Assembly: GCA_964586775.1 (NCBI GenBank)
Contig: CAZPJD010000061.1
Coordinates: forward strand, 2,183-66,182
Length of the DNA: 64,000 nucleotides
From: an uncultured bacterium
GTDB taxonomy: Bacteria > Lernaellota > Lernaellaia > JACKCT01
Reading direction: 5' to 3'
Shown here piece by piece: positions 26,894 through 63,298 of this stretch. Numbering within the stretch: position 1 is the first letter of the stretch; each line of letters starts with the position of its first letter. The position numbers and the translations under genes were made by a program. Below the pieces are notes generated by a model. That model saw only the letters and a list, made by a program, of their open reading frames with translations, was not told where the DNA came from and searched no databases.

Positions 26894-26900
26894 GCCGGCG

Positions 26901-29278: not shown

Positions 29279-29377
29279 ACACGCCGCTGGCGTGGAATCC
29301 ATTCGGGGATATTGTATGATTCGCGGGTCGATATCCGACGGCCTACGGGTCGGAACGGCACTCATCGCGGACGAGAG

Positions 29378-30385
<1,008 letters not shown>

Positions 30386-30404
30386 TTTCCGGACGCGCCG
30401 TTTC

Positions 30405-31965: not shown

Positions 31966-32046
31966 TTTGACATAATATAGATTATGACCACTACAGGTCG
32001 GATGGCAACCAACGGATTGCCCGGCCCCATCGGTGATTGTGGGCTG

Positions 32047-32562: not shown

Positions 32563-32582
32563 GGTCGGGTCTCCTGATGGGA

Positions 32583-33383: not shown

Positions 33384-33480
33384 CTCGTCCGATCCGATTT
33401 CAGATCCCGTATGATCGCGAATCATAACGAAGGGTCGTGCGTGTCACAACGGTCACGCACCGCGCGTGCGAACTTTTCGG

Positions 33481-43745: not shown

Positions 43746-45299
43746 TTACGGGGTTTGTCGTGCTTGAAAAAAAGAAAACTCGCCCTTCGGGGTTTTCAGG
43801 GCAATGACGTCGTAATCGGCCATTTCGGGCCGATCGACGTAGTACGGCGACGGAAAGATCGACGCGAGCGCCTTTTCGCGCGGCCACGCGCGCGGCATGG
43901 GCACCGGCGGATAGGGCAGGATGAATCGGACCTTTCGCTCGAGCGCGACCTCGGGCGCGACGACGCCGAACGAGGTGAATCGCGCCGGGTCTGCCGCGCG
44001 TCCGCGACGGGCGATCTCGACACTGTTGAGGCCCCAGGTGTCGAGTACGCGGCAGTTCGTGAAATACGCAAACGTCCCCGCCACATCCGTCGCAAGTTCA
44101 TCGCTGTCGCGGCACAAAGGCTCGAAAGCGCGGGCCATGTCGATATATCCTGCGACGAGTTCGGCGTTGAAATGGGCCTTTTTCACTTGCGCGTCCGCGT
44201 CCGATCCGATCGGCAGAATCCACTGAACGCTTACGACGCACGCCAACGCGCAAAGGACGATCGCGACGCGAAAAATCGCGGTCGTCTTCGCCCACCACAG
44301 CGAAAATCCCGCGGCCGCCATTGCGAACACCAGCGGCAGCGCGGGGGCGACGAATCGAAAGCCCATCATGGCGTCGCCGCCGACGGCCACGCTCTTTGCG
44401 AGAAACAGCCCGGCGAGGGCGCCGACGAAGACAACGGCGAGCGTGCGACGAAAGTAGAGAAGCGCCGCGCAACCGACCGCGAGGTACTTCAAGCCGAGCG
44501 CGCTATCCGCGCCGCGCAGGTACTTCACGCCTTCGGCAAGGCGCATCGAAAAGGGATACGCGGCGCTCATTTTCGCGACCACCGTGTTTGGCGTCCACGT
44601 GCCGTAGGTCGCGAACGAGGCGTCGACATACACACCGTAGATCGCGAGCGACGCGAGCATCGCCACAGCCGCGCGTCGGTCGCGTCGCCGCCAACCGTCC
44701 CAAGCCACGTAGGCGAGTCCCAGCGCGAACGGAAACATGCCATCGAAGCGCGTGATCGCCGTGAGCGCCAGCACGACGAGCCCGCCGAGCGCGTCGATCC
44801 GCCCGTCGTCGTTCGGCAGCAGACGCCACGCCGCAAACGTCACCAGCGCCGTTTCGAGCATCGTTTCGAGGCCGGAGTTGACGTGCAGCGCGAACATCGT
44901 CGCGAGGGCGGGCATAACGACGCACACCCCCTGACCGACGCGCCCCGCGCCCAGTCGGCGGGCGGCCAGCGGCGTCGTGATGAACAGACTGACGAGCGCG
45001 AAAAACGACACCACCTTCATCGCGACGAGTAGCCGATCCGCACCGATCACCGCATACATCGCGGCGCTGACCATCATCCACAGCGGATTGGAATAGCCGA
45101 TCACGGTTTCGTCGGGGCGATAGAGCGCCCTGCCCGTCTCGACCCAGTGCCGCGCGTAGGCGAACGTGATAAACGCGTCGTCCTGGGCATAAACCCAGAA
45201 CGAACGCACCTGAAACGCGGCAATCGCCGTCGCGACGATCACCAGCGCGGCGAATACCGGCCTCGCGAGCGATTCACGAGCTTCCGGCTCACTCGTCAT
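43746..45299 (-). CDS. Polytopic membrane protein, GT-C-like glycosyltransferase candidate.
   Basis: About 12 predicted TM helices with a first extracytoplasmic loop bearing YAQDDAFITFAYARHW (an acidic DD motif as in GT-C enzymes), plus a ~150-aa C-terminal soluble domain. ATG at 45299 overlaps the upstream lipoprotein stop. Confidence 0.5.
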   Translation of the reverse strand: MTSEPEARESLARPVFAALVIVATAIAAFQVRSFWVYAQDDAFITFAYARHWVETGRALYRPDETVIGYSNPLWMMVSAAMYAVIGADRLLVAMKVVSFFALVSLFITTPLAARRLGAGRVGQGVCVVMPALATMFALHVNSGLETMLETALVTFAAWRLLPNDDGRIDALGGLVVLALTAITRFDGMFPFALGLAYVAWDGWRRRDRRAAVAMLASLAIYGVYVDASFATYGTWTPNTVVAKMSAAYPFSMRLAEGVKYLRGADSALGLKYLAVGCAALLYFRRTLAVVFVGALAGLFLAKSVAVGGDAMMGFRFVAPALPLVFAMAAAGFSLWWAKTTAIFRVAIVLCALACVVSVQWILPIGSDADAQVKKAHFNAELVAGYIDMARAFEPLCRDSDELATDVAGTFAYFTNCRVLDTWGLNSVEIARRGRAADPARFTSFGVVAPEVALERKVRFILPYPPVPMPRAWPREKALASIFPSPYYVDRPEMADYDVIALKTPKGEFSFFQARQTP

Positions 45300-47757: not shown

Positions 47758-47912
47758 CAACCTCGAAAACTCGCCCCATTCGGGCGACCGAAGAATAGCG
47801 CCGCGGGCGCGATGCCGCAACGCGGGACGCCCGCCGCGATCGCGTGGTCGAGACCGACGGGATTCAGCCCGATCTTCGGCCCCGATCGGCGATTCCCGCG
47901 CGCGAAACGACG

Positions 47913-47941
47913 TTGACGCAACCACGCGGACTCCCTAATAT
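47913..47941 (+). promoter_or_regulatory. Sigma70-like promoter (TTGACG-N17-TAATAT) facing the HEAT/glycan operon.
   Basis: Read directly: -35 TTGACG at 47913-47918, a 17-nt spacer, and -10 TAATAT at 47936-47941. Confidence 0.45.
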
Positions 47942-48001
47942 TTTTCGGCTTTATCCTCGCGGCGGGCCTTGTCCCGCGATGACACGGGAAATGCGGCATC
48001 C

Positions 48002-50535: not shown

Positions 50536-51423
50536 ATGACGTTGTCCCTGGTCATCGCGTGTCGCGACGGCGGCGCGACGCTCGACGCGTGTTTGCGATC
50601 GGTCGCCGCGTCCACGACGCACCCGCTCGAAGTGATCGTCGCCGATGACGGGAGCGTGGATGACTCGGCCCGCATCGCTGAGAACGCGGGCGCGCGGGTG
50701 CTGCGTCTCGCGCGACGGGGCCGCGCGGCGGCTTTGAATTCCGGAATCGACGCCGCGACGGGTGACGTGATCATGTTCACCGACGCCGATTGCGTAGTAC
50801 CCGTCGGGTGGGCCGAGCGGCTCGAATCGTATCTCGCATCGGGATTCGACGGCGTGGGCGGCAACCTGCTGCCGTCCGCGTGGACCGCCGTCGAGATCGC
50901 GAAGATCCTGCGTTACCTGCACGAGTTCGAGGGCGACTTCGAGCTGACCGGCGACTACACGCGCTGGTGCCTGAACGGCAACAACATGGCGATCAAAAAG
51001 GCGGCGCTCGACGCCGTCGGCGGATTCGACGAGGGCTATCTGCACGGCGCCGATGCCGATCTGACGCGCCGCCTGCTGCGTGCCGGCTACCGTCTTCTGC
51101 GCACGCGGGATGTCACCACGACGCACCTCAAGATCGACAACCTCGCGAGCTTTCGGCGGACTTTTTACCTGCGTGGATCGGCCGTGCGTTTTTCGATGAC
51201 CGACCGCGCATTGGGCGTGCGGGACCTGCTTTCGATGCTGGTTTCACCGCTGCGGCGCGCTCTTGCCGACTATACCCGCGTCGCCGCGATGAAACGCATG
51301 TTTCCCGCGATCGAATGGAACGCCCTGCTCGCCGCGCCGATCGCGCACGCGCTGGCCGACTGGAGCGCCGCGCGCGGGCAGCGCGACTTTCATCGCCGCT
51401 TCCGCGCCGAGGGCATGCGATGA
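50536..51423 (+). CDS. Glycosyltransferase family 2.
   Basis: GT-A motifs LSLVIACRDGG, DDGSVDDS and DADCVV are present. It starts 6 nt after the HEAT gene. Confidence 0.8.
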   Translation: MTLSLVIACRDGGATLDACLRSVAASTTHPLEVIVADDGSVDDSARIAENAGARVLRLARRGRAAALNSGIDAATGDVIMFTDADCVVPVGWAERLESYLASGFDGVGGNLLPSAWTAVEIAKILRYLHEFEGDFELTGDYTRWCLNGNNMAIKKAALDAVGGFDEGYLHGADADLTRRLLRAGYRLLRTRDVTTTHLKIDNLASFRRTFYLRGSAVRFSMTDRALGVRDLLSMLVSPLRRALADYTRVAAMKRMFPAIEWNALLAAPIAHALADWSAARGQRDFHRRFRAEGMR

Positions 51424-52865
51424 GCCTCGGGCGACGCGCGGTGCGTCAGACGCTCTGGGTCGCCGGGGGAACCTACCTCAAGACCGGCGTCAACTTCCTC
51501 GCGAACATTCTTCTCATGCGTCTCATCGCGCCGGATCAGTTCGGCATCCTCGCGATGGCGATGTTCTTTCTGACGCTCGGGCGCAAGCTCGTGGGATTCG
51601 GGTTCAATCACGCGCTCGTCCATCAACAGGAGGACCTGGATCGCCACGTCCCCACGCATCTGTGGCTTAACGTCGGGCTCGGCGGTGTGGTCGCCGCGGC
51701 GGCCGTGATTGCGCGGCCCATCGTCGCCGCCAGTTACGACGCGGCCACCGCGAACGCGCTTCTGGCGCTGGCGATCTTTGGCCTGCTCGAAAACATCGGG
51801 CACACGCCGCGTTTGTTGCTCGAAAAGGAGCTGAGGTTCGATCGTCTGATTCGTCTCGACCTCGTCAACACGGTGCTCTCGAACCTCGTGGGCATCGTCT
51901 GCGCGCTCGCGGGCTGGGGGTGGACGGCGCTCGCGGCCAAGCAGATCGCGGCTTGGGCAATTCAGACCGCCGGTACTTGGCGATTACATCCGACGCTACC
52001 CGGTTGGCGACCGTGCCTGCGGTCGGCCAGGTGGTACTGGGGGTTCGGTCTGCCGATGTGGTCGGCGGGGATCGCGACGTTCATCTCGCTTCAATTCGAC
52101 GACTTTCTTGTCGGCAGTTTTTCGGGAAACGAGGCGCTCGGCTTCTACGGCCGCGCATACGCCCTCGCCAGCTTCCCCACGGTGATGGTCACGCACATCG
52201 TCGGACGCGTGGCGTTTCCGCTCTACGCGAGCGTTCAGAATGACCGCGAAGCGCTCTCGAACGCGTTCGCGCGGGTGGTGCGCGTCATCATCACACTCAC
52301 CGCTCCGGGTGTGTTGTGGCTCGCCATCTGCGCGCCGGAGCTGGTTTCGCTCGTCTTCGGGCCGAACTGGACGGGGATGATCGTCATCCTCCAACTCCTC
52401 GTGGTCTACGCGTTTCTGCGCCCCGTCTACGACAACTGCGGAGAGCTCTTCACGGCGGTCGGCCAGCCCAAAATCGCCAGCCGCATATTGATTGCGCAGG
52501 CCGTGGCCGTGCTGATCGCGTGCCCGCCCATGACGTGGGCCTTCGGCGCCAAGGGCGCGGCGATCGCGGTGGGGGTGTCTCTCGCGGTCGGCGTCGTCCG
52601 CGCATACCAGATCGTTCCAAGGTATGTTAACTTTTCCGCGACCCGGGCATTCGGTCCCGCGACCGTCGCGGCCATGGTGGGCGTCGCGGTCGCGCTGTTC
52701 GCGGCGCGTATTCTCGGCGACGCCGGCCCGGTGGCGGTCCTCGCGATGAAGACCGTCGTGTTCGTGATCGCCGACATCCTGGTTTTGTTCGCAATGGAGG
52801 GACGTCAACTGCGCGAAGACTGGCGCGAGTTTCGGGCCGCGATGACCGGCGGAGAATCGCCTTGA
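51420..52865 (+). CDS. wzx: Wzx-type oligosaccharide flippase (MOP superfamily).
   Basis: About 12-14 TM helices with a polysaccharide-biosynthesis-protein N-terminal pattern. ATGA overlap with the GT2 stop. Confidence 0.75.
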   Translation: MSLGRRAVRQTLWVAGGTYLKTGVNFLANILLMRLIAPDQFGILAMAMFFLTLGRKLVGFGFNHALVHQQEDLDRHVPTHLWLNVGLGGVVAAAAVIARPIVAASYDAATANALLALAIFGLLENIGHTPRLLLEKELRFDRLIRLDLVNTVLSNLVGIVCALAGWGWTALAAKQIAAWAIQTAGTWRLHPTLPGWRPCLRSARWYWGFGLPMWSAGIATFISLQFDDFLVGSFSGNEALGFYGRAYALASFPTVMVTHIVGRVAFPLYASVQNDREALSNAFARVVRVIITLTAPGVLWLAICAPELVSLVFGPNWTGMIVILQLLVVYAFLRPVYDNCGELFTAVGQPKIASRILIAQAVAVLIACPPMTWAFGAKGAAIAVGVSLAVGVVRAYQIVPRYVNFSATRAFGPATVAAMVGVAVALFAARILGDAGPVAVLAMKTVVFVIADILVLFAMEGRQLREDWREFRAAMTGGESP

Positions 52866-53443
52866 GAGTGCTTGACGTCGGGTGCGGGCCGAACAAGGAG
52901 CCGGGGGCGTTCGGGGTCGATCACGAGCCCTTTGCGGGCGTCGATCTGGTGCACAATCTCGACGCGCGGCCGTGGCCGATCGCGGATTCCAGCTTCGATC
53001 GCGTGAACGCGAGCCATATCGTCGAGCATGTGGACGATCTGATCGGCTTTTTCCGCGAACTGCACCGCGTCTGCGCTCCCGGCGCCGAAATCCGCATCGT
53101 GACGCCTCACTTCACCAATCGCTGCGCCTATCTCGATCCCACGCACCGCCGGTACCTGTCGGTGCGCTTCGTCGATTTTTTCGCCGATGTTCCGCCATGG
53201 TATCCCGCGAACCGGTTTGCCGTCGCCCGCAGTTATCTCGGCGAGCACCACCACAGTTACCGGCCGCTGCTCCCGGGAATGTTCGATCTGTGCGAGGTCC
53301 GCATGACCTTTGCCCGGGTATTCCGTTGGCTCGGCGTGGAGTGGCTCGCGAATCGCAAGCCGGATTTCTACGAGTTCTTTCTGGCGTATCTCGCCCCCGC
53401 CCGGGATATCATCGCGACGCTGCGCGTGCGGAAGGAGTCGTGA
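52862..53443 (+). CDS. Small class I SAM-dependent methyltransferase.
   Basis: Motif I is VLDVGCGPN. TTG start overlapping the wzx stop (TTGA). Confidence 0.7.
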   Translation: MRVLDVGCGPNKEPGAFGVDHEPFAGVDLVHNLDARPWPIADSSFDRVNASHIVEHVDDLIGFFRELHRVCAPGAEIRIVTPHFTNRCAYLDPTHRRYLSVRFVDFFADVPPWYPANRFAVARSYLGEHHHSYRPLLPGMFDLCEVRMTFARVFRWLGVEWLANRKPDFYEFFLAYLAPARDIIATLRVRKES

Positions 53444-53444
53444 C

Positions 53445-54479
53445 TTGAGCGAGCGCCGCGTCACCAAGGGCAAAGTGAAGGTGTTTTCCAACACCACGGA
53501 GCCCGGCGTGGTCGGTCAGATCAAACGCATCGCCGACTGGCGGCATCGCGAGCCCATCGAGCTTGCTGGGACGGTCGCGCGAAAGGTGTGGCGACGCGGC
53601 GACAGGTTCCGGATGCTGCCGTTCCCGCAGGCGGTGCACATCGAGATCACGAACCGCTGCAATCTGAAGTGCGTGATGTGTCCTCATCCCACGATGTCAC
53701 GCACGCAGGGTCAGATGAGCGAAGAACTGTTCCGCAAGATCGTCGACGAGATTTCCGGGCACCGGCTGCTGCTCGAAAACGTCGCGATCATGGGCCTCGG
53801 CGAGCCGATGCTGCACACCGACTTCGAACGGCTGGTGACGATCGCCGCCGAGGCCGGCGTGCCGAATCTTTACGTCAGCACCAACGGCACCGCGCTCACC
53901 GAAAAGCGCGCGCAGCGGCTGGTGGAGGATGGCGCATTGGGCCGCCTCATCATCAGCCTCGACGGCGCGACGAAGGAGACGTACGAGGCGGTGCGTATCG
54001 GCGGCAAGTTCGACCTCGTCATGGAAAACACCGTGCGCGTCCTGCGCATCAAGCGCGCGATGGGGCGGCGCAAGCCCGTTGTGACGCTGCAAATCCTGAC
54101 CATGCCGCAAACGCGCCACGAAATCGACGACTTTGTGAACCGGTGGGAGCCGGAACTCGGCGAAGGGGATGAGATTCTCATCAAGGAGGTCGACACCTTC
54201 GGCGGCCTCGTCGACGACCTACGTCTCGATGCCGAACGGGAACCCGTTCAGCGCATCCCCTGCCGCATGCTGTGGAAGGACATGTCGATCGCGTGGGATG
54301 GTCAGGTGACCGTCTGCTGCAAAGACGTGTACTACCAACTCACCGCGGGCAACGCGAATACGCAGTCGCTCGCCGAAATCTGGAACGCGCCCAAGTGGAA
54401 TGCGTATCGCCGTCTTCACATGACCGGCGAATGGGATCGCATCCATCCCTGCGACATCTGCCGCGAATGGTACGTGTGA
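53445..54479 (+). CDS. Radical SAM enzyme with a C-terminal SPASM/twitch-like Cys cluster.
   Basis: The CxxxCxxC motif CNLKCVMC is preceded by a ~65-aa N-terminal extension. The C-terminus reads CRMLW...VTVCCKD...HPCDICREW. TTG start after AAGGAG. Confidence 0.8.
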   Translation: MSERRVTKGKVKVFSNTTEPGVVGQIKRIADWRHREPIELAGTVARKVWRRGDRFRMLPFPQAVHIEITNRCNLKCVMCPHPTMSRTQGQMSEELFRKIVDEISGHRLLLENVAIMGLGEPMLHTDFERLVTIAAEAGVPNLYVSTNGTALTEKRAQRLVEDGALGRLIISLDGATKETYEAVRIGGKFDLVMENTVRVLRIKRAMGRRKPVVTLQILTMPQTRHEIDDFVNRWEPELGEGDEILIKEVDTFGGLVDDLRLDAEREPVQRIPCRMLWKDMSIAWDGQVTVCCKDVYYQLTAGNANTQSLAEIWNAPKWNAYRRLHMTGEWDRIHPCDICREWYV

Positions 54480-55684
54480 GCGCCCAATTCGGCCATATCG
54501 TCTTCGTCACCGACGCGTTCTGGCCCGAAGTCGGCGGCGTCGAGCGCGTGAGTCTCGAACTCGCCCGCGCGTTCGTGCGTCGCGGTTTGCGGTTGACGGT
54601 CATCGCCCGCCGCGCGAGCGGGCGTCCGGATGACGAAGAGATCGACGGAATTCGAATCGTGCGTTTCGCTCCGGCAACAAGCCCGACGCCATGGGTGTGG
54701 GCGACCGGCGCCATTTCGGCGGCGAGGCGATTCCTCGACGTCGCGCGGCGCGATCGTCCGGATCTCGTGCACATGCATCTCGCGATGTCGGCGCAGGGGC
54801 CGCTGTCGGTTCTGCGACCGCGCGGGATTCCGCTCATCGCGTCCTTCTATGGTCGGTGGGATCGGGAGTTCGAAGCGGAGATCGACGACGTGCCAACGCC
54901 GCCGTGGCGGATGATCTATCACGACGCGCAGATGGCGGCGCAACGGGCAATGCAGCGACGACTGCTGACGCGCGCCGATCGCGTGGTCGCGCTCTCCGAA
55001 TTCAGCCGCCGGCAAGCCATTTCGCTCGCCCCCGGCATCGGCCACAAGCTTCGCAGGATTCCCGGCGGAATCGATCCTTTGTGTTTTTCGCTCACCGATA
55101 TGGCCCGTGGCGTTGCGCGGCCGACGACCATCGTGACGGTGCGCAGGCTCGTTCGCCGGATGGGGGTCGATCTCCTGATCGCCGCCCTGCCCGCCATCTC
55201 GCGGGAGTGTCCTGATGTGCGCCTTGTGATCGGCGGGCGTGGTCCACTGGAGGGCACGCTCCGCGAATTTGCGCGCGAGACCGGCGTCGCCGACCGAGTC
55301 GAGTTTCGCGGTTTCGTGACCGACGACGATCTACCCGCGCTCTACCGCGAGGCGGATCTTTTCGTCGTGCCCACGCGTGCGCAGGAAAACTTCGGCCTGC
55401 CCGTTCTGGAGGCCGCCGCGTGCGGCGTCGATGTCCTCGCGACGCGCGTCGGGTCTCTGCCCGAGGTCGTCGCGCTCGCGGGCGGCGAAAACGCGTGCGT
55501 CGAACCCGCCGCCGACGCCATCGCCGCGGGGGCGATTCGCGCTCTACAGCGTTCGCGCGATGATGCGTCGATCGAGCGGCGACTTCGCGAGTCGGAGCGC
55601 GTCCGTCGCGATCTGTCGTGGGACGCCGTCGCCGATTGCCACCTCGATCTGTACCGGGAGGCGCGATCGTGCGCGTGGCGGTGA
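54467..55684 (+). CDS. Glycosyltransferase family 4.
   Basis: GT-B with the EX7E region FGLPVLEAAACGVDVLATRVGSLPEVV. The start is ATG at 54467 or GTG at 54476; both overlap the radical-SAM gene end. Confidence 0.75.
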   Translation: MVRVSAQFGHIVFVTDAFWPEVGGVERVSLELARAFVRRGLRLTVIARRASGRPDDEEIDGIRIVRFAPATSPTPWVWATGAISAARRFLDVARRDRPDLVHMHLAMSAQGPLSVLRPRGIPLIASFYGRWDREFEAEIDDVPTPPWRMIYHDAQMAAQRAMQRRLLTRADRVVALSEFSRRQAISLAPGIGHKLRRIPGGIDPLCFSLTDMARGVARPTTIVTVRRLVRRMGVDLLIAALPAISRECPDVRLVIGGRGPLEGTLREFARETGVADRVEFRGFVTDDDLPALYREADLFVVPTRAQENFGLPVLEAAACGVDVLATRVGSLPEVVALAGGENACVEPAADAIAAGAIRALQRSRDDASIERRLRESERVRRDLSWDAVADCHLDLYREARSCAWR

Positions 55685-56787
55685 TCGGCCACACCTACGT
55701 GGTGGACGCGAATCGCGGCAAATGGCGCGCGCTCGCGCCGCGTTGCGAGGCGCTGCGCCTTTTCGCGCCGTCGGTCTGGCCGGAACGGGACTTTTGGACG
55801 CGCGAATGCGAACCGGCCGGGGACCTCGACGTGGTTGCGCTGCCGGCCCGGGACGCCGGGCACGCACGTCGTTGGCGATTTTCGTTCGTTAAACTGCGAG
55901 GAGAACTCTTGGCGTTTCGTCCCGACGTCTTGCACGTCGAGGCCGAGGCGGGCTCGGCGATCGCGCTGGAGGCGGCTTGGCTCTGCCGGTCCGCTCTTTT
56001 TACGCAGTTCGTGTGGGAGAATATCCCCATCGATTCCCCGTGGCGTCGAGCGCTCGCGAAATGGAACTACGCGAGAATCGATCATCTGTTTGGCGGTTCC
56101 AACGGCGCGCTGTCAGCCGCCCGTGCGGACGGATATTGCGGTGCGGCGACCGTCGTGCCGCAGGTGGGCGTCGACGTCGCCTCCGTGGATCGCACGAACG
56201 CCACCCGCGTCTTCAACGACGATCGTTTCGTCGTCGGCTTCGTCGGGCGGATGGACGCCAAGAAGGGCGTCCATGTACTGCTTGACGCGATAAGAATACT
56301 GGACGGCCAGCGCATCGGATTGGTGTTCGTCGGCGACGGGCCAGAACGCGGTATCCTTCGCGAGCGCGCGTCACGGGATGAATTGTCGGGCCAAGTGCGG
56401 TTCGTCGATCCCGTCCCGCACGATACTGTCGCGTCGTACATCAAGGGCTTCGACCTTCTCGTGTTGCCGAGTGTTTCGACGCCCGGTTGGCGCGAGCAAT
56501 TCGGGCACGTGTTGATCGAGGCGATGGCGTGCGGCGTGCCGGTGATTGGCTCGCGATGCGGAGCGATCCCCGAGGTGATCGGCGACGCGGGCGTGGTGGT
56601 GGACGAAAACGATGCGACGGCATTGGCGCGGGAAATCGCGCGTTTGATCGGCGACGCGGATGGGCGTAACAAATACGTGCTGGCAGGGCGACGTCGCGTG
56701 GAGAGCCTGTACACGGACGAAGCGGTTGCCGACGCCCTGCGTTGCGTGTGGACTTCGCTCGCGAAAGAGTCAAAACGGGATCGGTGA
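55669..56787 (+). CDS. Glycosyltransferase family 4.
   Basis: GTG is preceded by GGGAGG. Contains the EX7E-type region FGHVLIEAMACGVPVIGSRCGAIPEVI. Overlaps the upstream gene by 16 nt. Confidence 0.75.
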   Translation: MRVAVIGHTYVVDANRGKWRALAPRCEALRLFAPSVWPERDFWTRECEPAGDLDVVALPARDAGHARRWRFSFVKLRGELLAFRPDVLHVEAEAGSAIALEAAWLCRSALFTQFVWENIPIDSPWRRALAKWNYARIDHLFGGSNGALSAARADGYCGAATVVPQVGVDVASVDRTNATRVFNDDRFVVGFVGRMDAKKGVHVLLDAIRILDGQRIGLVFVGDGPERGILRERASRDELSGQVRFVDPVPHDTVASYIKGFDLLVLPSVSTPGWREQFGHVLIEAMACGVPVIGSRCGAIPEVIGDAGVVVDENDATALAREIARLIGDADGRNKYVLAGRRRVESLYTDEAVADALRCVWTSLAKESKRDR

Positions 56788-56796
56788 GTCGGCACC

Positions 56797-58281
56797 ATGA
56801 CCGAAACCACTCTCGATTCGCTGATTCGCAAGATCCAGACGCACCGCAACGCGCGCGATGTGGCCGCGGGTTTTGCGGCGTTGCTCGTGTGCTGGGCGGT
56901 GGGTCAGTCGGTGGCGCAACAGGATCTCGCCCTTCCGATCGGGCTGGCCGGCGCCGCCATCTTTGTCCTCGTCTTTTTTCGCCGCGCGTCTCTCCTGCTC
57001 CTCGCGCCGGCGGCGATGTGCGTTCCGAATATGGGCCTCGATATCCCTGGGCCGTGGGCGATCTCCATCGAAGACGCGTTCGTGATGCTGTGCTTCGCGG
57101 CGCTCGTCGCGCGCGGGATCGTCCTCGGTCGTCCGGTTTTTCCACGCGGCCTTCCGGGCATGCGCCCCATGTTCGCCTTTTGGGGCATCGCGATGCTCTC
57201 GCTCGTCAAGACGGCGACGATCTCGCGATCGAGCCTGATGCTCGTGATGAAGGACCTGATGCGCCTTTCGCTGCTCATGCTCTTCTTCGCCGTCATGGTC
57301 GATGCGATCCGCACCAAGGCGCATCTGCGAACGATCACACGCGTGCTGATCGCGCTCGCCGTGCCCATGGCTGCGGTCTCCTGGTACATCTACCTGACGA
57401 GGAGCGACTTTTTCTACACGATCCTGACGATGAAGCCCGCGTACATCTACTACAAGGGCAACATCCTGCGCATGATCTCGATCGCGGGATCGACCAGCTT
57501 CACGGGGCTTTACTACGCCGTCATCCTCGCGCTCGCGCTGAATCATCTGCCGTTCTTCCGCAACACCACCACCCGCGCCTGGGGCTACGCCATCGCCGGC
57601 CTGCTCCTCTCGTGCCTCGCGATGACCTTCAATCGCGGCACGTGGGTCGGCGTGCTCTTCGGGTATTTCCTGCTCTCGCTGGTCGGGCAACTCAATTGGC
57701 GTCGCGTGGTGGTGGCCGCGATGCTGCTCGGCGGCCTCGCGCTCATCACGAGCGCGCATTTCTTCCACCAGCTCGAGGTCGAGAACAAGCTCAACGTGCT
57801 GGTCGAGGTTTCCCGATCCTCGGGCACGACGCGCCTCGTGCGCTGGATGTCGTCGATCAACGTCATCCTCGATCAGCCGCTGCTCGGCGTCGGCTACAAC
57901 AACTACGCCTACGTTTACGGTCTGTATTCCATCGAGGAAGGCATCACGCGTCTCTACGGGTCGCCGCACAACATGTACGTCGATATCGTCACCGGCACGG
58001 GCCTCGTAGGTTTTACGGTGTTCGCGACGTGGATGTACCGGCTGTGGCGAATCCACGTCGAAAACCTGCGTGGAACGATCGACCCCGAGATGAAAATGCT
58101 CGCGGTCGGCCTTTTCCTCGCGTTCGGCATCTTTCTTGGAGCATCGGGATTCGACTCGTTCTTTTTCAAACCGCATCACACCTCGTTCATCCTGATGCTC
58201 CTCTGGGCGATGAGCACGGCTTTGTGGCGGCTAAATCGCGACGAAGACCGCAACCAAGCACGCGGCGAGGCGAAGTCGTGA
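56797..58281 (+). CDS. O-antigen ligase/polymerase family membrane protein (Wzy_C/WaaL-type).
   Basis: About 11-12 TM helices with a large periplasmic loop near the C-terminal third (the RLYGSPHNMYVDIVTGTG region, typical of Wzy_C). Confidence 0.7.
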   Translation: MTETTLDSLIRKIQTHRNARDVAAGFAALLVCWAVGQSVAQQDLALPIGLAGAAIFVLVFFRRASLLLLAPAAMCVPNMGLDIPGPWAISIEDAFVMLCFAALVARGIVLGRPVFPRGLPGMRPMFAFWGIAMLSLVKTATISRSSLMLVMKDLMRLSLLMLFFAVMVDAIRTKAHLRTITRVLIALAVPMAAVSWYIYLTRSDFFYTILTMKPAYIYYKGNILRMISIAGSTSFTGLYYAVILALALNHLPFFRNTTTRAWGYAIAGLLLSCLAMTFNRGTWVGVLFGYFLLSLVGQLNWRRVVVAAMLLGGLALITSAHFFHQLEVENKLNVLVEVSRSSGTTRLVRWMSSINVILDQPLLGVGYNNYAYVYGLYSIEEGITRLYGSPHNMYVDIVTGTGLVGFTVFATWMYRLWRIHVENLRGTIDPEMKMLAVGLFLAFGIFLGASGFDSFFFKPHHTSFILMLLWAMSTALWRLNRDEDRNQARGEAKS

Positions 58282-59282
58282 ACTCGGCGAGCCGGGAGAA
58301 CCGGTCGATTCTCGTTCACAAACCCGATCACTTGGGCGACGTGCTTTGTGCGGCGCCCGCGATCCGGCGTCTGCGCGACGCATTTCCCAACGCGCGTGTC
58401 GTCGCGTCCGCCATGTCCGGCCCGGGGCGGTTTCTGGTGGAGATGCGGCTCGCCGACGAGATTCTGGAACTGCCCGGTCCCGATTGGTGGAAGCGGCGCG
58501 GAGCGGCGGGATTTGTCGCGTCGTGCCGTCGCGTTCGTTTCGATCTGGCCGTGAATTTCCGGCATGATGCGCGCGACATTACTTCGATGGCGCTCATCGG
58601 TGCAAAGGAAGTTTGCACGTACACGCACCGACGATTCGGTTCGCGGCATTCCTTCGCGGCAGCGCCGCCTTCCGGCGACCGGGCGGAACTCCTGAACCAC
58701 CTCGCGCTCGTGCGTGCGTTAGGGATCGCGACCGATTTCGTTCCGGGCGAATTCCGAGACCGGCTCGCGCCTACCGACGTCGCGCGATTTCGACGCGACG
58801 GACGGTGGATTGCGTTCCATCCTTTCTCGCGCACGCGGGCCAAGGCGTGGCCGATCGAGCACGCGCACTCGTTTGTGCGGATGGCGATCGATCGCGGCCT
58901 TGGCGTTCGATTGATCGGCGCGCGCGAGCACGAGGGCGAATCGGAGCGGATCGGATGCGACTCCCCGTTGTGCGAGAACCTCGTTGGGCGGACCGATGTG
59001 CGCGAATTGCTTTGCTGCATCGCGGCTGCCGACGCGCTCGTTTGCGCGGACTCAGGGCCGGGTCACATTGCTCCGCTGGTCGGCACGCCGGTCGTCTCGA
59101 TCGCCAGCGGAACCAACGAGCACGCGCGCTGGGCCCCTTACGGTGCGGTCGTGCTGTCGAAACCCGTCTCATGCGCCCCATGCCATCTCGAAACGTGCCC
59201 TGTGCCCGGCCACCCGTGCATGAACGATCTCACGCCAGCCGCCGCGATGTCCGCGTTGACGCAATTGCCGGGTTTCGCATGA
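58278..59282 (+). CDS. Glycosyltransferase family 9 (heptosyltransferase-like).
   Basis: ILVHKPDHLGDVL...GPGHIAPLVGTPVVSI is the GT9 pattern. GTG start overlapping the upstream stop. The 846-aa ORF-track entry is an alternate-frame artefact. Confidence 0.75.
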   Translation: MNSASRENRSILVHKPDHLGDVLCAAPAIRRLRDAFPNARVVASAMSGPGRFLVEMRLADEILELPGPDWWKRRGAAGFVASCRRVRFDLAVNFRHDARDITSMALIGAKEVCTYTHRRFGSRHSFAAAPPSGDRAELLNHLALVRALGIATDFVPGEFRDRLAPTDVARFRRDGRWIAFHPFSRTRAKAWPIEHAHSFVRMAIDRGLGVRLIGAREHEGESERIGCDSPLCENLVGRTDVRELLCCIAAADALVCADSGPGHIAPLVGTPVVSIASGTNEHARWAPYGAVVLSKPVSCAPCHLETCPVPGHPCMNDLTPAAAMSALTQLPGFA

Positions 59283-60406
59283 CCATGCGCATCCTGCTCG
59301 ATGCCACGTGCGTGAACGACGATGCGCTCACCGGCGCGGCGCGATACGTCATCGCGCTCGTCCGCGCGCTAAGGGTCGAGCGCGGAATCGATCTTCACGT
59401 CTTCACTTTTTCGCGGCGCGCTTTTGCCGAATTTCCGGACCACGTGCGCGTATCCCGACTCGATCTCCCGCGCGTTTTGGGCCCGGTTGCGCGGGAGGCT
59501 TCACGGCGAAGATTCGTCTCGCGCGCCGCGCATAGCGGCGTCGATCTCGTCCACTACACGCTCGATCCCGCGCCGCCGATAGACGGCGTGCGATCCGTGT
59601 TGACGCTGTTCGACATGGCGCGTCGTGCGCCGAGCTTTCGCGCCGCAACGGGCGCATCGCTTCGCGCGCTCATGCGCACGCACCTGCGCTATGGCCTCGC
59701 CAAGCGAATGGACCTGCTCATCGCGACCACGCCCCATGCGGCGCGTGAAATCGCTTCGGACCTGCCATATCCGGCAGCGAAGATTCGCGTGTCGCCGATT
59801 GCGACGGATCCCGCGTTCACGCCGGGCGTTCCTGACGCGTCTGCGTTGTCCCGTCACGGGCTCGTCGCGGGCGAATACGTGCTTTTTGTCGGGCAGCTCG
59901 GGCGGCAAAAAAATGAAGACGGCTTGTTGGCCGCGTTTCGATCGGCGAAAGAGCGCAATTTGGTACCGGCGACAATGCGACTGGCACTCGCTGGTGACGA
60001 TTCGCAGGCCGCCGCGGGTACGCGGGCGGCCATTCGCAACGCGGCGAGCGTAAGCATGCTCGGCACCGTGAGCGACGACGATCTCGTTCACCTTTACCGT
60101 GGCGCGGTGTGCCTCGCACTACCGAGTTTCGTCGAGGGCTACGGGCTCCCGGTGCAGGAGGCGATGGCGTGCGGAACTCCCGCGCTCGTCTCGCGCGGGA
60201 CGTGCCTTGTCGATGTCGCGGGCGCTGGCGGCATCGCCGTCGATCCGAATAACCTCGACGGGATGCGTGACACCATCGCGAATCTCGTGAACGACCGCAA
60301 TCTGTACGAGCGGCTGTCGCGCGGGGGAATCGAGCAGTCGTCTTCGCGGACCGACGCCGAAATGGCGCGCGCACATCTGGAGGCGTACCGTGACGCACTC
60401 CGGTAG
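59279..60406 (+). CDS. Glycosyltransferase family 4.
   Basis: Contains YGLPVQEAMACGTPALVSRGTCLVDV. ATGA overlap with the upstream stop. Confidence 0.75.
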   Translation: MTMRILLDATCVNDDALTGAARYVIALVRALRVERGIDLHVFTFSRRAFAEFPDHVRVSRLDLPRVLGPVAREASRRRFVSRAAHSGVDLVHYTLDPAPPIDGVRSVLTLFDMARRAPSFRAATGASLRALMRTHLRYGLAKRMDLLIATTPHAAREIASDLPYPAAKIRVSPIATDPAFTPGVPDASALSRHGLVAGEYVLFVGQLGRQKNEDGLLAAFRSAKERNLVPATMRLALAGDDSQAAAGTRAAIRNAASVSMLGTVSDDDLVHLYRGAVCLALPSFVEGYGLPVQEAMACGTPALVSRGTCLVDVAGAGGIAVDPNNLDGMRDTIANLVNDRNLYERLSRGGIEQSSSRTDAEMARAHLEAYRDALR

Positions 60407-61451
60407 ATCCCCGCGCACGCTGGTCGTCAGTTTGCAGGGAATCGGCAACAACCTGCTCGCGTTGCCGCTCGCGTCCGCGCTGGCGCGTCGCGACGAAAGC
60501 TCCGTCTGCATGCTGGTGCGTTCGCCGCGCGTGCGCGAACTCCTGCGCATTCGGTCGGATATCGACGACGTGATCGCGCTCGACGACGAGCGAATTCGCG
60601 GTGTCGCGGGGACGGTTCGACTGCTGCGCGAACTGCGCGCGCGACGGTTCACGCGGGCCGTGCTGGCCCACCCCGCCGGTTCGCGCGCCGCCGCCCTCGT
60701 GGCCGCGGCGCGTATCGACGAGCGCGTCGCGATCGTGAGCCCGCGCATGTCGCGTGGAGCGCGTTTCCTCACGCATGGTCGGACGTACGTTCAGGGGATG
60801 CACGATCTGGAACACAACCAGTGGCTCGCCGAGATGTGCGACGCGCACATCGACCTCGCTCGCGACTGGCCGCCGCTGCGTCCTGAGCAGGGAGATGTCG
60901 AGGGCGCACGCACCTGGCTTTCCGCTCTCGGTTTCGACCCCGCCGCCCGGTACGTGGGATTTCACTCGGGCTGCGACGGCGATTTCGCCGAGAAGCGCTG
61001 GCCCGAATCGTCGTTCGCGGCGCTCGCGCGCGGGTTGCATGAAGATACGGGTCGAGCGGCCATCGTCTTCGACGGGCCGTCGGAGCTTGGTTCCGGCCGA
61101 CGCATCGCCCACCTCGCCGCATCGCCCGTCGTCGCCATGGACGGCTGGGGCGGCTTGGCGCAGGCCCTCGGGATGCTTTCTGTCTGCGACGTGTTCGTCT
61201 CCAACGATTCGGGGCTCATGAATCTCGCCGCGGCGGCCGGGGTGCCGTGCGTCGCCATCTTTGGTCCGAGCGAGGTCGCGCGAACGAGGCCCTTGGGTGG
61301 GCGTCACCGCGTGATCCACGCCAATCGCGCGTGCGTGCCCTGCTACCACCTCGGCCCGTGGAGCGGATGCATTCATCCGGCTCGCCCGTGTCTCGAAGAC
61401 GTGAGTGTCGATGTGGTGCTGCGCGCCGTGCTGGAACTGCTGCCGTCATGA
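60390..61451 (+). CDS. Glycosyltransferase family 9 (heptosyltransferase-like), second copy.
   Basis: Contains LVVSLQGIGNNLL...VSNDSGLMNLAAAAGVPCVAIFGPS. GTG is preceded by GGAGG. Confidence 0.7.
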   Translation: MTHSGRSPRTLVVSLQGIGNNLLALPLASALARRDESSVCMLVRSPRVRELLRIRSDIDDVIALDDERIRGVAGTVRLLRELRARRFTRAVLAHPAGSRAAALVAAARIDERVAIVSPRMSRGARFLTHGRTYVQGMHDLEHNQWLAEMCDAHIDLARDWPPLRPEQGDVEGARTWLSALGFDPAARYVGFHSGCDGDFAEKRWPESSFAALARGLHEDTGRAAIVFDGPSELGSGRRIAHLAASPVVAMDGWGGLAQALGMLSVCDVFVSNDSGLMNLAAAAGVPCVAIFGPSEVARTRPLGGRHRVIHANRACVPCYHLGPWSGCIHPARPCLEDVSVDVVLRAVLELLPS

Positions 61452-63298
61452 AGATTCTCTACATCGACCAGTACTACTCGAATCGACGCGGCAACTCCGG
61501 CACACGCAGCCACGAGTTCGCCCGGCGTTGGGTGCGCGATGGGCACGACGTGACGATCGTCACCACCGCGAGCGCGTATTCGCACCTCGCCGGACAGCGG
61601 CGATGGCTGCGCCGAAGCGTCGACGAGGGCATCACGGTTTGGAGCCTTCGCATCCCCTACGCGCAATCCATGGGCTACGCGCGGCGAGTCTGGTCGTTCG
61701 CGACGTTCATGGTCATGTCCACGCTGATCGGACTTCTCGTCCCGAAGCCCGACGTGGTCTTTGCCAGCAGCACGCCCCTCACCGTGGGTGTGACGGGAGC
61801 GATCGTCGCTTGGCTTCGCACGCGACCGTTCGTCTTCGAGGTTCGCGACTTGTGGCCGCGAGCGCCCATCGAGCTCGGCGCGATCCGCAACCGGTATCTC
61901 ATCCCGGCGCTCGAAGCGGTCGAGCGGTGGATCTATCGGCGGGCGGACGCCATCAACGCGCTCTCGCCGGGCATGGCGACGGGAATCATCGCCACCGGCG
62001 TCGAACCCGAGCGGGTCTCGGTCGTCTCCAATGCGTGCGACTTCGACCTGAATGCCGCGCCGCGGACGCCCCGCCCGGAAGCGAATCACCGCGTCGTCTA
62101 CGCGGGCGCGCTCGGTCCCGCCAACGACTTGGGCGATCTCATCCGCGTCGCGGGCGAGTTGCACCGACGCGGGCGGGCGGACATCGAGATCGTCATCGCG
62201 GGCGAGGGGTCGCAGGAGCCGTTGATCCGCGATCTGGTGCGACACGGTGAACTCGCCAACGTGCGTTTCGCGGGTTCGCTGCCCCGCCGCGAGGTGGGCG
62301 AGCTTCTCGCGACCGCCGACATTGCGGTCACGTGTTTTGCCCCGCTGCCCGTGCTCGCGACGAACAGCCCCAACAAGTTTTTCGATTATCTCGCGTGCGG
62401 CATTCCGCAAATCACCAACTCGCCCGGATGGCTTCGGGAGTTGCTCGAAGAGTCCGGCGCGGGCGCGTTCTGGCCGTGGGGCGACGCAGCCGCCGGCGCG
62501 GATCTCATCGAATCGCTTATCGACGACGCGCCTTGGCGCAATGTTATGTCGAAATCCGCCGCGAAGCTCGCTCAGCGTTTCGAGCGGGGCGCGCTCGCGA
62601 AGGAACTGCTGAATGTCCTGACAGGCGCAACAAAATCCCCGGTACGCGGATTATCGGTCGCATGGCAGGGCATCTTCGACCGCACTTGCGCCCTCGCGGG
62701 ACTCGCCCTGCTCTCACCCCTGCTGCTGGGTATCGCATGGATGATCCGTCGCGATGACGGCGGTCCGGTGTTCTATCGCCCGACGCGCATCGGCCTCGGC
62801 GGACAACCGTTTCGCATGTGGAAGTTCCGGACGATGACGCCCAACGCGGAAAGCTTGGGTCTCGGCCTGAATGTCGGCGAGAGCGACCCGCGCATCACGC
62901 GTGTCGGCGAGTGGCTGAGGAAGTGGTCGCTCGACGAACTCCCGCAGCTCATCAACGTCGTGACCGGCGAAATGCGTCTCGTGGGTCCCCGACCCGCCCT
63001 GCCCGGCCATGCCGAGCGTTACACGACCGAGCAGAAAGAGCGCCTGCGAGTGCGCCCGGGCCTGACCGGTTGGGCGCAGGTGAATGGACGCAACGCGCTT
63101 TCGTGGTCGCGGAAGTTGGAGTTCGACGTGTGGTACGCGCGGCATCGAAGCTTCTGGCTCGACCTGTGGATCCTGATTCGCACGGTCGGCGTGGTGGCCC
63201 GGCGCGAGGGCTTATACGAAACCGACGCGGGACTGGCGGACGATTTCAACCGGTTCGAGCCGCGCGTTCACGACGCCGCCCCGCCCGGTGGCGACTAG
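61448..63298 (+). CDS. Fusion of a GT4 glycosyltransferase with a PglC-like monotopic phosphoglycosyl transferase (Bac_transf).
   Basis: The N-terminal ~400 aa are GT4 (MKILYIDQYY...). The C-terminal ~200 aa have a reentrant hydrophobic helix (CALAGLALLSPLLLGIAWMI) and PGT motifs (GGPVFYRPTRIG, FRMWKFRTM, DELPQLINVVTGEMRLVGPRP). Confidence 0.8.
   Translation: MKILYIDQYYSNRRGNSGTRSHEFARRWVRDGHDVTIVTTASAYSHLAGQRRWLRRSVDEGITVWSLRIPYAQSMGYARRVWSFATFMVMSTLIGLLVPKPDVVFASSTPLTVGVTGAIVAWLRTRPFVFEVRDLWPRAPIELGAIRNRYLIPALEAVERWIYRRADAINALSPGMATGIIATGVEPERVSVVSNACDFDLNAAPRTPRPEANHRVVYAGALGPANDLGDLIRVAGELHRRGRADIEIVIAGEGSQEPLIRDLVRHGELANVRFAGSLPRREVGELLATADIAVTCFAPLPVLATNSPNKFFDYLACGIPQITNSPGWLRELLEESGAGAFWPWGDAAAGADLIESLIDDAPWRNVMSKSAAKLAQRFERGALAKELLNVLTGATKSPVRGLSVAWQGIFDRTCALAGLALLSPLLLGIAWMIRRDDGGPVFYRPTRIGLGGQPFRMWKFRTMTPNAESLGLGLNVGESDPRITRVGEWLRKWSLDELPQLINVVTGEMRLVGPRPALPGHAERYTTEQKERLRVRPGLTGWAQVNGRNALSWSRKLEFDVWYARHRSFWLDLWILIRTVGVVARREGLYETDAGLADDFNRFEPRVHDAAPPGGD

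Follow-up and report, generated by a model that had tools for sequence, protein, structure and literature searches.

What is a radical SAM enzyme doing in an operon for a surface glycan? The question is raised by a run of 11 genes, 50536-63298 on the + strand of the 64-kb stretch of DNA analysed here (the window), in which a methyltransferase gene and a radical SAM gene are embedded between those for a Wzx flippase and a GT4 glycosyltransferase. The operon opens with a GT2 glycosyltransferase (50536..51423; Pfam Glycos_transf_2, 92.7 bits, and synteny) and the Wzx-type flippase (51420..52865; Polysacc_synt_3, 210.5 bits), whose gene overlaps its neighbours at ATGA and TTGA. There follow a 193-aa class I SAM-dependent methyltransferase, termed MT (52862..53443, start TTG), and the 344-aa radical SAM enzyme, termed rSAM (53445..54479, start TTG); then the GT4 enzyme (54476..55684; Pfam), a second GT4 (55669..56787, its start uncertain, the ORF opening at 55618; Glycos_transf_1, 124 bits), a Wzy_C-domain membrane protein of the O-antigen polymerase/ligase/O-oligosaccharyltransferase family (56797..58281; Wzy_C, 66.7 bits), a GT9 glycosyltransferase of the heptosyltransferase family (58278..59282; Glyco_transf_9, 74 bits), a third GT4 (59279..60406; Pfam), a second GT9 (60390..61451; 84.2 bits) and, last, a fusion of GT4 with the initiating phosphoglycosyl transferase (PGT) domain Bac_transf (61448..63298; Bac_transf, 216.4 bits, plus GT4 domains). 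Bac_transf, Wzx, Wzy_C, four GT4, two GT9 and one GT2, all recognized by Pfam, constitute a Wzx/Wzy-type lipid-linked glycan pathway.

MT and rSAM are translationally coupled to their neighbours in this operon: the Wzx stop and MT start overlap in TTGA, the rSAM start follows the MT stop after a single base, and the rSAM stop and GT4 start overlap in GTGA. The first-pass annotation had described rSAM as translationally sandwiched between wzx/methyltransferase and GT4, and had placed here a 193-aa methyltransferase and a 344-aa radical SAM protein with the motif CNLKCVMC; both proteins are indeed present, each above its Pfam cut-offs. That they are products of real genes and not chance ORFs is indicated by their homologues (>100 for rSAM, 59 for MT), their conserved motifs and AF2 models of pLDDT 95 in each case. 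The TTG start of rSAM at 53445 is preceded by GGAAGGAG and is supported by the way homologues open, with MTERRVTKGK or MSERRTTKGR.

The sequence C72-N-L-K-C76-V-M-C79 (53658..53681), the site of the SAM-binding [4Fe-4S] cluster, and a PF04055 score of 72.3 bits against a cut-off of 29.5 place rSAM in the radical SAM superfamily. The CX3CX2C motif is kept wherever a residue exists at those columns (247-249 of 255 family members, the rest being gaps), and a GEP motif (G119-E120-P121) is also conserved among family members. The AF2 model shows six beta/alpha units and an N-terminal extension of about 60-64 aa (aa 1-64, 53445..53636) that is strongly basic, with 15 K/R to 6 D/E, and folds as one short strand and two helices. 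An inspection of this extension for a substrate-recognition domain, as the annotation had proposed, came back empty: its 64 residues gave no Pfam match even at E <= 10, and neither an RRE nor any other known domain. Only one 50 %-cluster representative covers the extension at full length; a shorter version, K-x-x-x-[FY]-S, occurs in glycan-embedded relatives 39-44 % identical to rSAM.

No curated family claims rSAM, its best-scoring NCBIfam models all falling below their cut-offs. The best of them, the uncharacterised subfamily TIGR04321 ("spiro-SPASM protein"), aligns over the whole radical SAM core and twitch domain, yet at 145.6 bits against a cut-off of 250 and only at profile positions 229-506 of 510; rSAM lacks the N-terminal cytidylyltransferase-like domain of roughly 228 aa, and membership was rejected. 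A 506-aa relative, P0058, matches this model end to end. A literature search found no paper naming TIGR04321. The protein belongs to an uncharacterised family that spans at least 586 species and falls into 1,126 clusters when grouped at 50 % identity.

The arrangement of cysteines defines the C-terminal part more closely. There are exactly eight in the protein, the three of the core motif and 273, 291, 292, 336 and 339, of which the last five lie in the pattern C273-X12-G286-X4-C291, followed by C292, D294, W313, R322 and C336-X2-C339 (twitch domain, 54261..54461). C273 and C291 are kept in all 255 family members, C336 and C339 in 254. A full SPASM domain, which houses two auxiliary clusters, has the seven-Cys motif CX9-15GX4C-gap-CX2CX5CX3C-gap-C (PMC6231123). 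The CX2CX5CX3C block is absent from rSAM, with only five C-terminal Cys in all, and a full SPASM was rejected; the tail is a twitch domain with one predicted auxiliary [4Fe-4S] cluster. That the Pfam SPASM HMM nevertheless scores 52.5 bits, above cut-off, is explained by its coverage of the first half, which is common to SPASM and twitch. Of the "SPASM/twitch-like" tail first proposed, then, the twitch stands, with four Cys in the register of BtrN, and the full SPASM falls. Cys292, which adjoins the ligand C291 without being a ligand itself, is kept in 231 of the 255 members; BtrN carries Phe there.

BtrN, the 2-deoxy-scyllo-inosamine dehydrogenase of butirosin synthesis (PDB 4M7T/4M7S), is the closest characterised relative of rSAM, and a type that the annotation had named. 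It ranks first in the PDB by sequence (phmmer, E 1.2e-13), by family profile (2.5e-35, 125 bits; the next, BlsE, scores 60 bits) and by fold (Foldseek E 4e-15; TM 0.73 on BtrN length), and the only PDB chain matched when the twitch domain is searched alone. Both proteins join a radical SAM core to a C-terminal twitch in which one Cys precedes the beta-hairpin, GX4C follows it and a further two Cys come behind helix alpha2', so that the four auxiliary-cluster Cys fall in the same register (C-X12-G-X4-C ... C-X2-C); E67, N147, D294, W313 and R322 align as well. A further likeness is that BtrN acts on a small polyol. The differences are nonetheless considerable. BtrN, at 250 aa, has no counterpart of the 64-aa basic extension; its barrel is abridged, and the six-unit core modelled for rSAM is larger; it serves antibiotic synthesis, with a free aminocyclitol as substrate, whereas rSAM sits in a Wzx/Wzy_C surface-glycan operon. 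An orthologue of BtrN (a DOIA dehydrogenase) was rejected on these grounds, on an identity of about 16-18 % in the Foldseek alignment, and on the lack of aminoglycoside genes beside rSAM, where GT2, GT4, GT9, Wzx and Wzy_C are found instead. An identity to BtrN of only about 18 %, with a differing core, also argues against reading rSAM as a sugar-tailoring enzyme.

Other solved relatives are more distant. BlsE (cytosylglucuronate decarboxylase) and DesII (TDP-sugar deaminase/dehydrogenase) are the second- and fifth-best distinct PDB profile matches (ranks 3-4 and 7-8; 60 and 58 bits), a lipid synthase and the peptide maturase SkfB scoring between them. Both act on nucleoside- or nucleotide-linked sugars, but only the radical SAM core aligns, the chemistry is different and both serve antibiotic pathways. 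The anSME, PqqE, MftC and sactisynthases belong to the same superfamily and share the first half of the auxiliary-cluster motif; SPASM maturases, however, have seven Cys for two clusters and mostly either carry an RRE or act on a protein, where rSAM has five C-terminal Cys and neither RRE nor precursor. An anaerobic sulfatase-maturing enzyme was rejected on the one-cluster twitch of rSAM, on the 54 bits of anSME against 125 for BtrN, and on the absence of a sulfatase from the operon.

The partner enzyme MT has motif I, VLDVGCG, at residues 3-9, the very N-terminus, as do its homologues; it scores 35.8 bits with Methyltransf_11 (cut-off 21.2), and its AF2 model has the generic class I fold: it is a class I SAM-dependent methyltransferase. 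C8, G9, D20, H56, R69, D92 and E171 are invariant among 59 homologues, and a module WLAN...YEF...PARD is conserved towards the C-terminus. All NCBIfam matches are far below cut-offs, and the glucose 4'-O-methyltransferases RebM and AtmM appear among many unrelated methyltransferases of similar score, as generic matches only.

Gene order and gene fusions support a link between the two proteins. Every Lernaellota (FEN-1099)-type relative examined keeps the order Wzx-MT-rSAM-GT4, as do, by tblastn, 8 clade contigs with rSAM 47-78 % identical; all six look-up loci share the genes from GT2 through Wzy_C, the five that extend far enough also the order through GT9-GT4-GT9-(GT4+PGT), and the GT4+Bac_transf fusion likewise ends the operon in L002-L006. 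For 12 MT/rSAM pairs the longest contigs are equal in size, which suggests a shared contig and hints at adjacency down to about 44 %. Three individually examined relatives of 36-44 % identity also lie in glycan clusters (glycan loci: L007, L008, L091 and L092), as does the rSAM clade itself. Natural fusions support a functional link to methyltransferases: P0318 joins rSAM to a class I methyltransferase homologous to the MT family (hhalign 97 %, E 3e-11) and directly follows GHMP kinase and NTP_transferase in a NeuB/DegT/SDR nucleotide-sugar cluster, P0327 joins an FkbM methyltransferase to rSAM, and P0257 and P0058 join CTP_transf_3 to rSAM. The further suggestion that rSAM replaces missing NAD-dependent enzymes is weak, and not generally supported, since relatives adjoin SDR epimerases and dehydratases, although the window, the only part of the genome seen, contains no SDR, UGDH or aminotransferase gene.

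From this domain anatomy, homology, operon membership, synteny and fusion evidence, we consider rSAM to be probably, though not securely, a twitch-domain enzyme that tailors a sugar of the operon's glycan in concert with methylation. SAM would be cleaved at the C72/C76/C79 cluster and the resulting 5'-deoxyadenosyl radical would take a hydrogen from a carbinol carbon, the presumed site of attack, of a sugar that is most likely nucleotide-activated but might already be carried on undecaprenyl diphosphate. The substrate radical would then be resolved beside the fully Cys-ligated auxiliary [4Fe-4S] cluster (C273/C291/C336/C339). The route we favour, with a confidence well short of even, is a redox-neutral inversion in which Cys292 would give a hydrogen back on the opposite face, as in an epimerase. 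MT, presumably acting after rSAM, would finally methylate the same residue or a neighbouring position.

This supposed role for Cys292 comes by analogy from three radical SAM sugar epimerases, HygY (hygromycin B), NeoN (neomycin) and AviX12 (avilamycin); all act in antibiotic pathways, rSAM in an envelope-glycan operon. PMC10991966 cites a paper on HygY whose title has a single Cys switching a twitch radical SAM enzyme between epimerase and dehydrogenase, and the same source cites Cys249 as the hydrogen donor of NeoN. A Cys next to an auxiliary-cluster ligand would fit the logic of HygY Cys183 and NeoN Cys249. Epimerisation has against it that the closest characterised homologue is a dehydrogenase; oxidation, that the operon encodes no enzyme for the further processing of a keto-sugar. 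Of the reactions originally offered (dehydrogenation, epimerisation or C-methylation), none is assignable from the sequence. Function in the SPASM/twitch subfamily is hard to predict in this way, as noted with the SkfB structure (PMC6231123).

The second route, rather doubtful in our estimation, is a two-electron oxidation of BtrN type: a sugar hydroxyl would become a ketone, the electron passing to the auxiliary cluster, and MT would use the activated position, by C-methylation alpha to the ketone or O-methylation of an enol or hydrate, to yield a branched or methylated keto-sugar. BtrN, by far the closest relative, oxidises an alcohol by two electrons and has an auxiliary cluster of low potential that is fully ligated (PMC9012708), and all four ligands are conserved in rSAM. 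Methyl-transfer enzymes (class I methyltransferase, FkbM, B12-binding radical SAM), moreover, recur in the family as partners or in fusions, a pattern most readily understood if methylation acts on the rSAM product. On the other hand, neither the operon nor the window holds an aminotransferase or ketoreductase, free keto-sugars are rare in mature glycans, and BtrN has no counterpart of the conserved Cys292. NDP-hexose C-methyltransferases are roughly 400 aa long, and we take MT, with its generic structural matches, to be unlike them. Other radical chemistry accounts for the remaining probability.

It is likewise somewhat improbable that the two enzymes act independently, MT O-methylating one sugar, such as a terminal cap, and rSAM working on another residue or step, with adjacency due to operon packing. 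The pair is not obligate: P0154, a full-length MT homologue (42 %), lies in a glycan cluster whose 16.6-kb locus shows no rSAM gene, the rSAM relatives of L091 and L007 have no adjacent member of the MT family, and outside the clade the constant neighbour of rSAM is GT4 or GT9 and not MT; in L091, as in all clade loci, GT4 comes after rSAM. Against independence stand the strict adjacency across the clade to 47 % rSAM identity, and as suggested to about 44 %, the two independent kinds of rSAM-methyltransferase fusion, and the tight translational coupling.

A substrate other than a sugar, be it a lipid (polyprenyl carrier or acyl chain), a cofactor or a protein, as in anSME-like enzyme maturation, is clearly unlikely. 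The basic extension could bind a membrane or phosphate head-group, the second-tier NCBIfam matches are the metalloenzyme maturases W_rSAM_matur (121 bits) and rSAM_Geo_metal (102 bits), the lipid-acting Tes/GDGT-MAS are among the weaker matches (NCBIfam; PDB phmmer), and many sulfatases have been reported for Ca. Lernaella (PMC9324843). The maturase matches, however, are confined to the generic core (residues about 60-235) and leave out the twitch domain; anSME scores far below BtrN and is a full SPASM enzyme; and the rSAM gene is fixed in a glycosyltransferase operon across the clade, with nucleotidyltransferase-like and methyltransferase fusion partners typical of sugar pathways. Many relatives of 31-39 % identity lie in B12-radical SAM arrays with uncharacterised products, and the 71 relatives (31-44 %) found by genome scan mostly lie beside B12-binding radical SAM genes, not glycosyltransferases, so the family may span more than one substrate class, a point against the sugar reading too.

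A RiPP maturase with an overlooked precursor gene, to which the SPASM match, the many peptide maturases among SPASM proteins and weak NCBIfam matches (MftC, PqqE, WgkB, StsB) might point, is scarcely credible and was rejected, since those matches are far below cut-offs and confined to the radical SAM core, the N-terminal 64 aa hold no RRE, junctions from GT2 start to PGT stop overlap or leave no gap above 9 nt, no small + strand ORF was found downstream, in keeping with the earlier remark that no precursor is encoded nearby, the usual peptidases and transporters of RiPP clusters are absent, and the tail is a one-cluster twitch.

We put forward tentatively that the locus could be a founding case of a primary cell-envelope glycan being tailored by radical SAM chemistry, with a twitch enzyme akin to BtrN and a methyltransferase producing a rare epimer, keto- or C-methyl sugar. 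If so, rSAM, with its own basic N-terminal module and putative catalytic Cys-Cys motif, and MT would make a sugar outside NAD-dependent chemistry, and the relatives of rSAM, which often stand in arrays with B12-dependent radical methylases or carry a fused methyltransferase or cytidylyltransferase-like domain, would point to a widespread and as yet unexplored chemistry of radical glycan modification in uncultured anaerobic bacteria and archaea. Ca. Lernaellota are mostly anaerobic (PMC9324843), which fits an oxygen-sensitive enzyme.

The 344-aa radical SAM enzyme (hereafter rSAM) and the neighbouring 193-aa class I methyltransferase (MT) are real genes despite the G+C content of the window, about 64 %, at which long spurious ORFs are plentiful. 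MT runs on the forward strand from a TTG at 52862 to a stop at 53443, its start backed by homologues opening M-x-x-LD-x-GCG; rSAM runs on the same strand from a TTG at 53445, preceded by GGAAGGAG, to a stop at 54479, and homologues opening MTERRVTKGK or MSERRTTKGR back that start. Both are translationally coupled to the flanking genes: the wzx stop and MT start overlap (TTGA), a single base lies between the stop of MT and the start of rSAM, and the rSAM stop overlaps the next GT4 start (GTGA). ORFs of 188-230 aa overlap the pair, one antisense (52805-53497, reverse strand) and two in alternative frames of the forward strand (52882-53448 and 53588-54172); with the Arg/Pro/Ala-rich translations expected in 64 % G+C DNA, they look spurious.

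Pfam places Radical_SAM at residues 66-232 of rSAM (72.3 bits) and SPASM at 273-339 (52.5 bits). There are exactly eight cysteines: C72, C76 and C79 in the motif CNLKCVMC, then C273, C291, C292, C336 and C339, giving the C-terminal tail the pattern C273-X12-G286-X4-C291 ... C336-X2-C339. The SPASM motif, CX9-15GX4C-gap-CX2CX5CX3C-gap-C, carries two clusters, and twitch is its truncated form with one (PMC6231123); comparison of the Cys pattern with these published definitions makes the tail a twitch rather than a full SPASM domain. Thus of the first-pass annotation's reading, a radical SAM enzyme with a SPASM/twitch-like tail, the radical SAM core and a four-Cys twitch stand, and full SPASM does not. 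C273 and C291 are kept in all of 255 aligned relatives, and C336 and C339 in 254; E67, the three cysteines of the radical SAM cluster, N147, R184, W313 and R322 are near-invariant across the same set, and 231 relatives have the extra cysteine, C292, 228 having D294. An AF2 model made from 113 sequences (pLDDT 95) has six beta/alpha units, a twitch composed of a beta-hairpin and helices and, at the N-terminus, one strand plus two helices. The first 64 residues are strongly basic (15 K/R against 6 D/E); this extension, where a substrate-recognition domain had been envisaged, contains no RRE and matches nothing in Pfam, even at E <= 10.

The closest solved relative is BtrN, the 2-deoxy-scyllo-inosamine dehydrogenase of the butirosin pathway. 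It is the best PDB match by phmmer (E 1.2e-13), by family profile (E 2.5e-35, 125 bits, followed by BlsE at 60 bits and DesII at 58) and by Foldseek on the AF2 model (E 4e-15, TM 0.73 on BtrN length), and it is the sole PDB chain found when the twitch domain alone is the query. All four ligand cysteines of its auxiliary cluster align with rSAM. At only about 18 % identity, and with BtrN having no N-terminal extension and a Phe in place of the C292 of the rSAM family, rSAM is not a BtrN orthologue but is predicted to act as a BtrN-type enzyme. [quoted passage not shown] None of the best 25 of 69 NCBIfam matches to rSAM reaches its cut-off; the top model, TIGR04321 'spiro-SPASM', scores 145.6 bits against a cut-off of 250, rSAM covering only profile positions 229-506. 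By these profile scores rSAM appears to fit no curated family.

The two genes belong to a tightly packed operon of 11 genes (50536-63298) in which no gap exceeds 9 nt, in the order GT2, Wzx, MT, rSAM, GT4, GT4, Wzy_C, GT9, GT4, GT9 and a GT4+Bac_transf fusion. The Wzy_C-family protein (56797-58281) and the two heptosyltransferase-family GT9 proteins (58278-59282 and 60390-61451), all on the forward strand, could form part of an LPS core/O-antigen ligase system or an O-linked protein glycosylation system, or the former could be a polymerase; the window, with the 20 further ORFs that were scanned, yielded no supply genes for LPS, Kdo or heptose. The initiating phosphoglycosyl transferase (PGT), Bac_transf fused to a complete GT4 (61448-63298, forward), closes the operon instead of opening it, as in every clade locus reaching that far. 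Directly upstream lies a gene for an 853-aa HEAT-repeat protein (47969-50530, forward), kept in the closest relatives (L001-L003) but not conserved in more distant clade members. A promoter-like site at 47913-47941, just before the HEAT gene, is the sole match upstream of the whole unit, the remaining four falling within the HEAT gene; divergent from the HEAT gene, and immediately upstream of it, is a gene for an 878-aa FG-GAP/ASPIC-UnbV repeat protein (45289-47925, reverse). Searches of the 64-kb window found no SDR epimerase/dehydratase, UDP-glucose dehydrogenase (UGDH), NeuB, aminotransferase or DegT, and no cytidylyltransferase, GHMP kinase or NTP-transferase of the sugar-supply type, so nucleotide-sugar supply genes presumably lie elsewhere. 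Elsewhere the window carries housekeeping genes (ThrRS, PheRS, EF-G, peptidoglycan recycling); a cell-wall turnover group at 24858-33443 comprises an LD-carboxypeptidase, a beta-lactamase-fold protein, a Mur ligase, an NAGPA phosphodiester glycosidase and a LysM-M23 peptidase.

The order from GT2 through Wzy_C is the same in all six clade loci looked up (L001-L006), which include Candidatus Lernaella stagnicola and the MAGs fen_1099 and HK-STAS-FEN-2 and whose rSAM proteins are 78, 63, 49, 47 and 48 % identical to that of the window; in the five loci long enough it extends to the GT4+PGT fusion. By tblastn, Wzx-MT-rSAM-GT4 is collinear across eight clade contigs, and 12 pairs of MT and rSAM homologues have longest contigs of matching length, suggesting that the two genes of each pair share a contig. 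Obligate pairing is argued against by one MT homologue (42 %), which belongs to a glycan cluster whose 16.6-kb locus, as far as shown, has no rSAM gene. MT itself has motif I at residues 3-9, an invariant D20 and a conserved C-terminal module (WLAN...YEF...PARD); it scores above cut-off with Pfam Methyltransf_11 and is modelled by AF2 as a class I fold (pLDDT 95), and profile and fold searches returned generic class I matches with no clue to substrate. MAGs of Candidatus Lernaellota (=FEN-1099) are reported to be most abundant in anoxic water, and aerobic respiration is absent from them or limited to a low-O2 oxidase (PMC9324843), a habitat that suits an oxygen-sensitive enzyme.

Fusion proteins bear on function. 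P0318, of 649 aa (L093:8001-9950), joins rSAM to a class I methyltransferase half that shares homology with the MT family of the window (hhalign 97 %, E 3e-11); its gene follows GHMP kinase and NTP_transferase genes in an archaeal nonulosonic-acid/nucleotide-sugar cluster with DegT, SDR, CTP_transf_3, NeuB, a PglD-like gene, Wzx, PMT_2 and GT2. P0327 fuses an FkbM methyltransferase to rSAM, and P0257 fuses CTP_transf_3 to it, an architecture shared by P0058 (L008:8001-9521), which matches TIGR04321 end to end, yet under the 250-bit cut-off. Further architectures in the family are rSAM with GNAT, rSAM with a B12-binding rSAM, and tandem twitch rSAMs; additional representatives with fusion or tandem architecture are P0250, P0296, P0190 and P0203. 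These fusions support a role for this type of rSAM in nucleotide-sugar or glycan metabolism, and a functional tie to methylation.

A SAM-cleaving cluster site with a four-Cys twitch site in BtrN register, a fixed place in a lipid-linked glycan operon, and coupling to MT through adjacency and fusion are the observed basis for a mechanism. rSAM would abstract hydrogen from a sugar carbinol carbon, whereupon either C292 would give a hydrogen back on the opposite face, resulting in epimerisation, or an electron would pass to the auxiliary cluster with formation of a ketone, the BtrN route. The models for the first route are HygY, described (as cited in PMC10991966) as a twitch epimerase turned into a dehydrogenase by mutation of one Cys, and NeoN, which makes use of its Cys249. 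We slightly favour epimerisation over dehydrogenation, because the cysteine conserved at position 292 is a Phe in BtrN and because the operon is without a ketone-processing enzyme. In anSME, Asp277, the residue directly after the equivalent ligand Cys276, is the proposed catalytic base, and by this equivalence position 292 of rSAM would lie at the substrate. The list of anSME cluster ligands agrees with PMC6231123. The BtrN-type dehydrogenase route is nearly as likely.

A substrate other than sugar, whether a lipid carrier or a protein undergoing maturation, is improbable: beyond the basic N-terminus of rSAM its sole basis is matches confined to the core, and the fusion partners are typical of sugar pathways. 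Such matches cover only the generic radical SAM core in the case of anSME and metalloenzyme maturases too, for which reason that reading was not put first. To the extent that sequence allows, a peptide maturase can be ruled out, as there is no RRE, the tail is a one-cluster twitch, and the overlooked precursor ORF considered earlier would have no room between genes so closely spaced.

To our knowledge, characterised sugar-modifying radical SAM enzymes come almost only from antibiotic pathways (BtrN, DesII, BlsE, HygY, NeoN, AviX12), where such chemistry is already known. We found no literature describing a radical SAM enzyme in a Wzx/Wzy-type envelope-glycan operon, nothing relevant pairing radical SAM/SPASM with O-antigen, Wzx/Wzy or O-antigen epimerisation, and no mention of spiro-SPASM. 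The candidate phylum Lernaellota/FEN-1099 has a BtrN-like enzyme as a fixed member of a conserved core envelope-glycan operon. If this enzyme does epimerise or oxidise a sugar, or aid its methylation, it would represent a new oxygen-independent path to rare surface-glycan sugars, explain the role of many proteins annotated 'radical SAM/SPASM protein' in polysaccharide loci, and give glyco-engineering a compact module of two genes.

No member of the large wider rSAM family has been characterised. Searched exhaustively with phmmer, 1.84 billion representatives gave 1,126 clusters at E <= 1e-30, and the N-terminal extension is covered by a single representative among them; a species-genome scan found at least 586 carriers, nearly all MAGs, in Chloroflexota, Acidobacteriota, Planctomycetota, Myxococcota and several archaeal groups. 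Those relatives that are 36-44 % identical (L091, L092, L007, L008) are embedded in glycan clusters, arranged in L091 as GT4-GT4-rSAM-GT4-SDR-GT9-GT4-PGT ... Poly_export and in L092 as GT4-rSAM-GT9-MT-GT4-Wzy_C with three B12-rSAMs upstream. That rSAM stands in for missing NAD-dependent enzymes, as had been suggested, finds no general support, since relatives co-occur with SDR enzymes. The L092 cluster (604-10002) contains, besides its GT4, GT9 and Wzy_C genes and the three B12-rSAMs, a second rSAM/SPASM, an SDR, a methyltransferase and Trm112, and the B12-rSAMs within it hint at radical C-methylation of glycans.

As tblastn with the GT, Wzx and MT proteins of the window was too insensitive for distant loci, it was replaced by bulk Pfam scans. 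Among 226 flanking ORFs of 71 relatives (31-44 %, genome scan), counted approximately with a crude greedy ORF caller, B12-binding rSAMs were commonest (57), followed by GT2 (14), class I methyltransferases (about a dozen), GT1-family proteins (11) and NeuB (3). Since B12-binding rSAMs outnumber the other flanking families, the family outside the clade is not uniformly glycan-linked, and its recurrent partners there are, by predicted function, methyl-transfer enzymes. Most Anaerolineae, Caldilineales and Aminicenantes loci among the distant set (L014-L090) have B12-binding rSAM flanks. In seven of the 71 distant loci, also among L014-L090, rSAM adjoins an RrnaAD/KsgA-type rRNA adenine dimethylase, an unexpected housekeeping neighbour.
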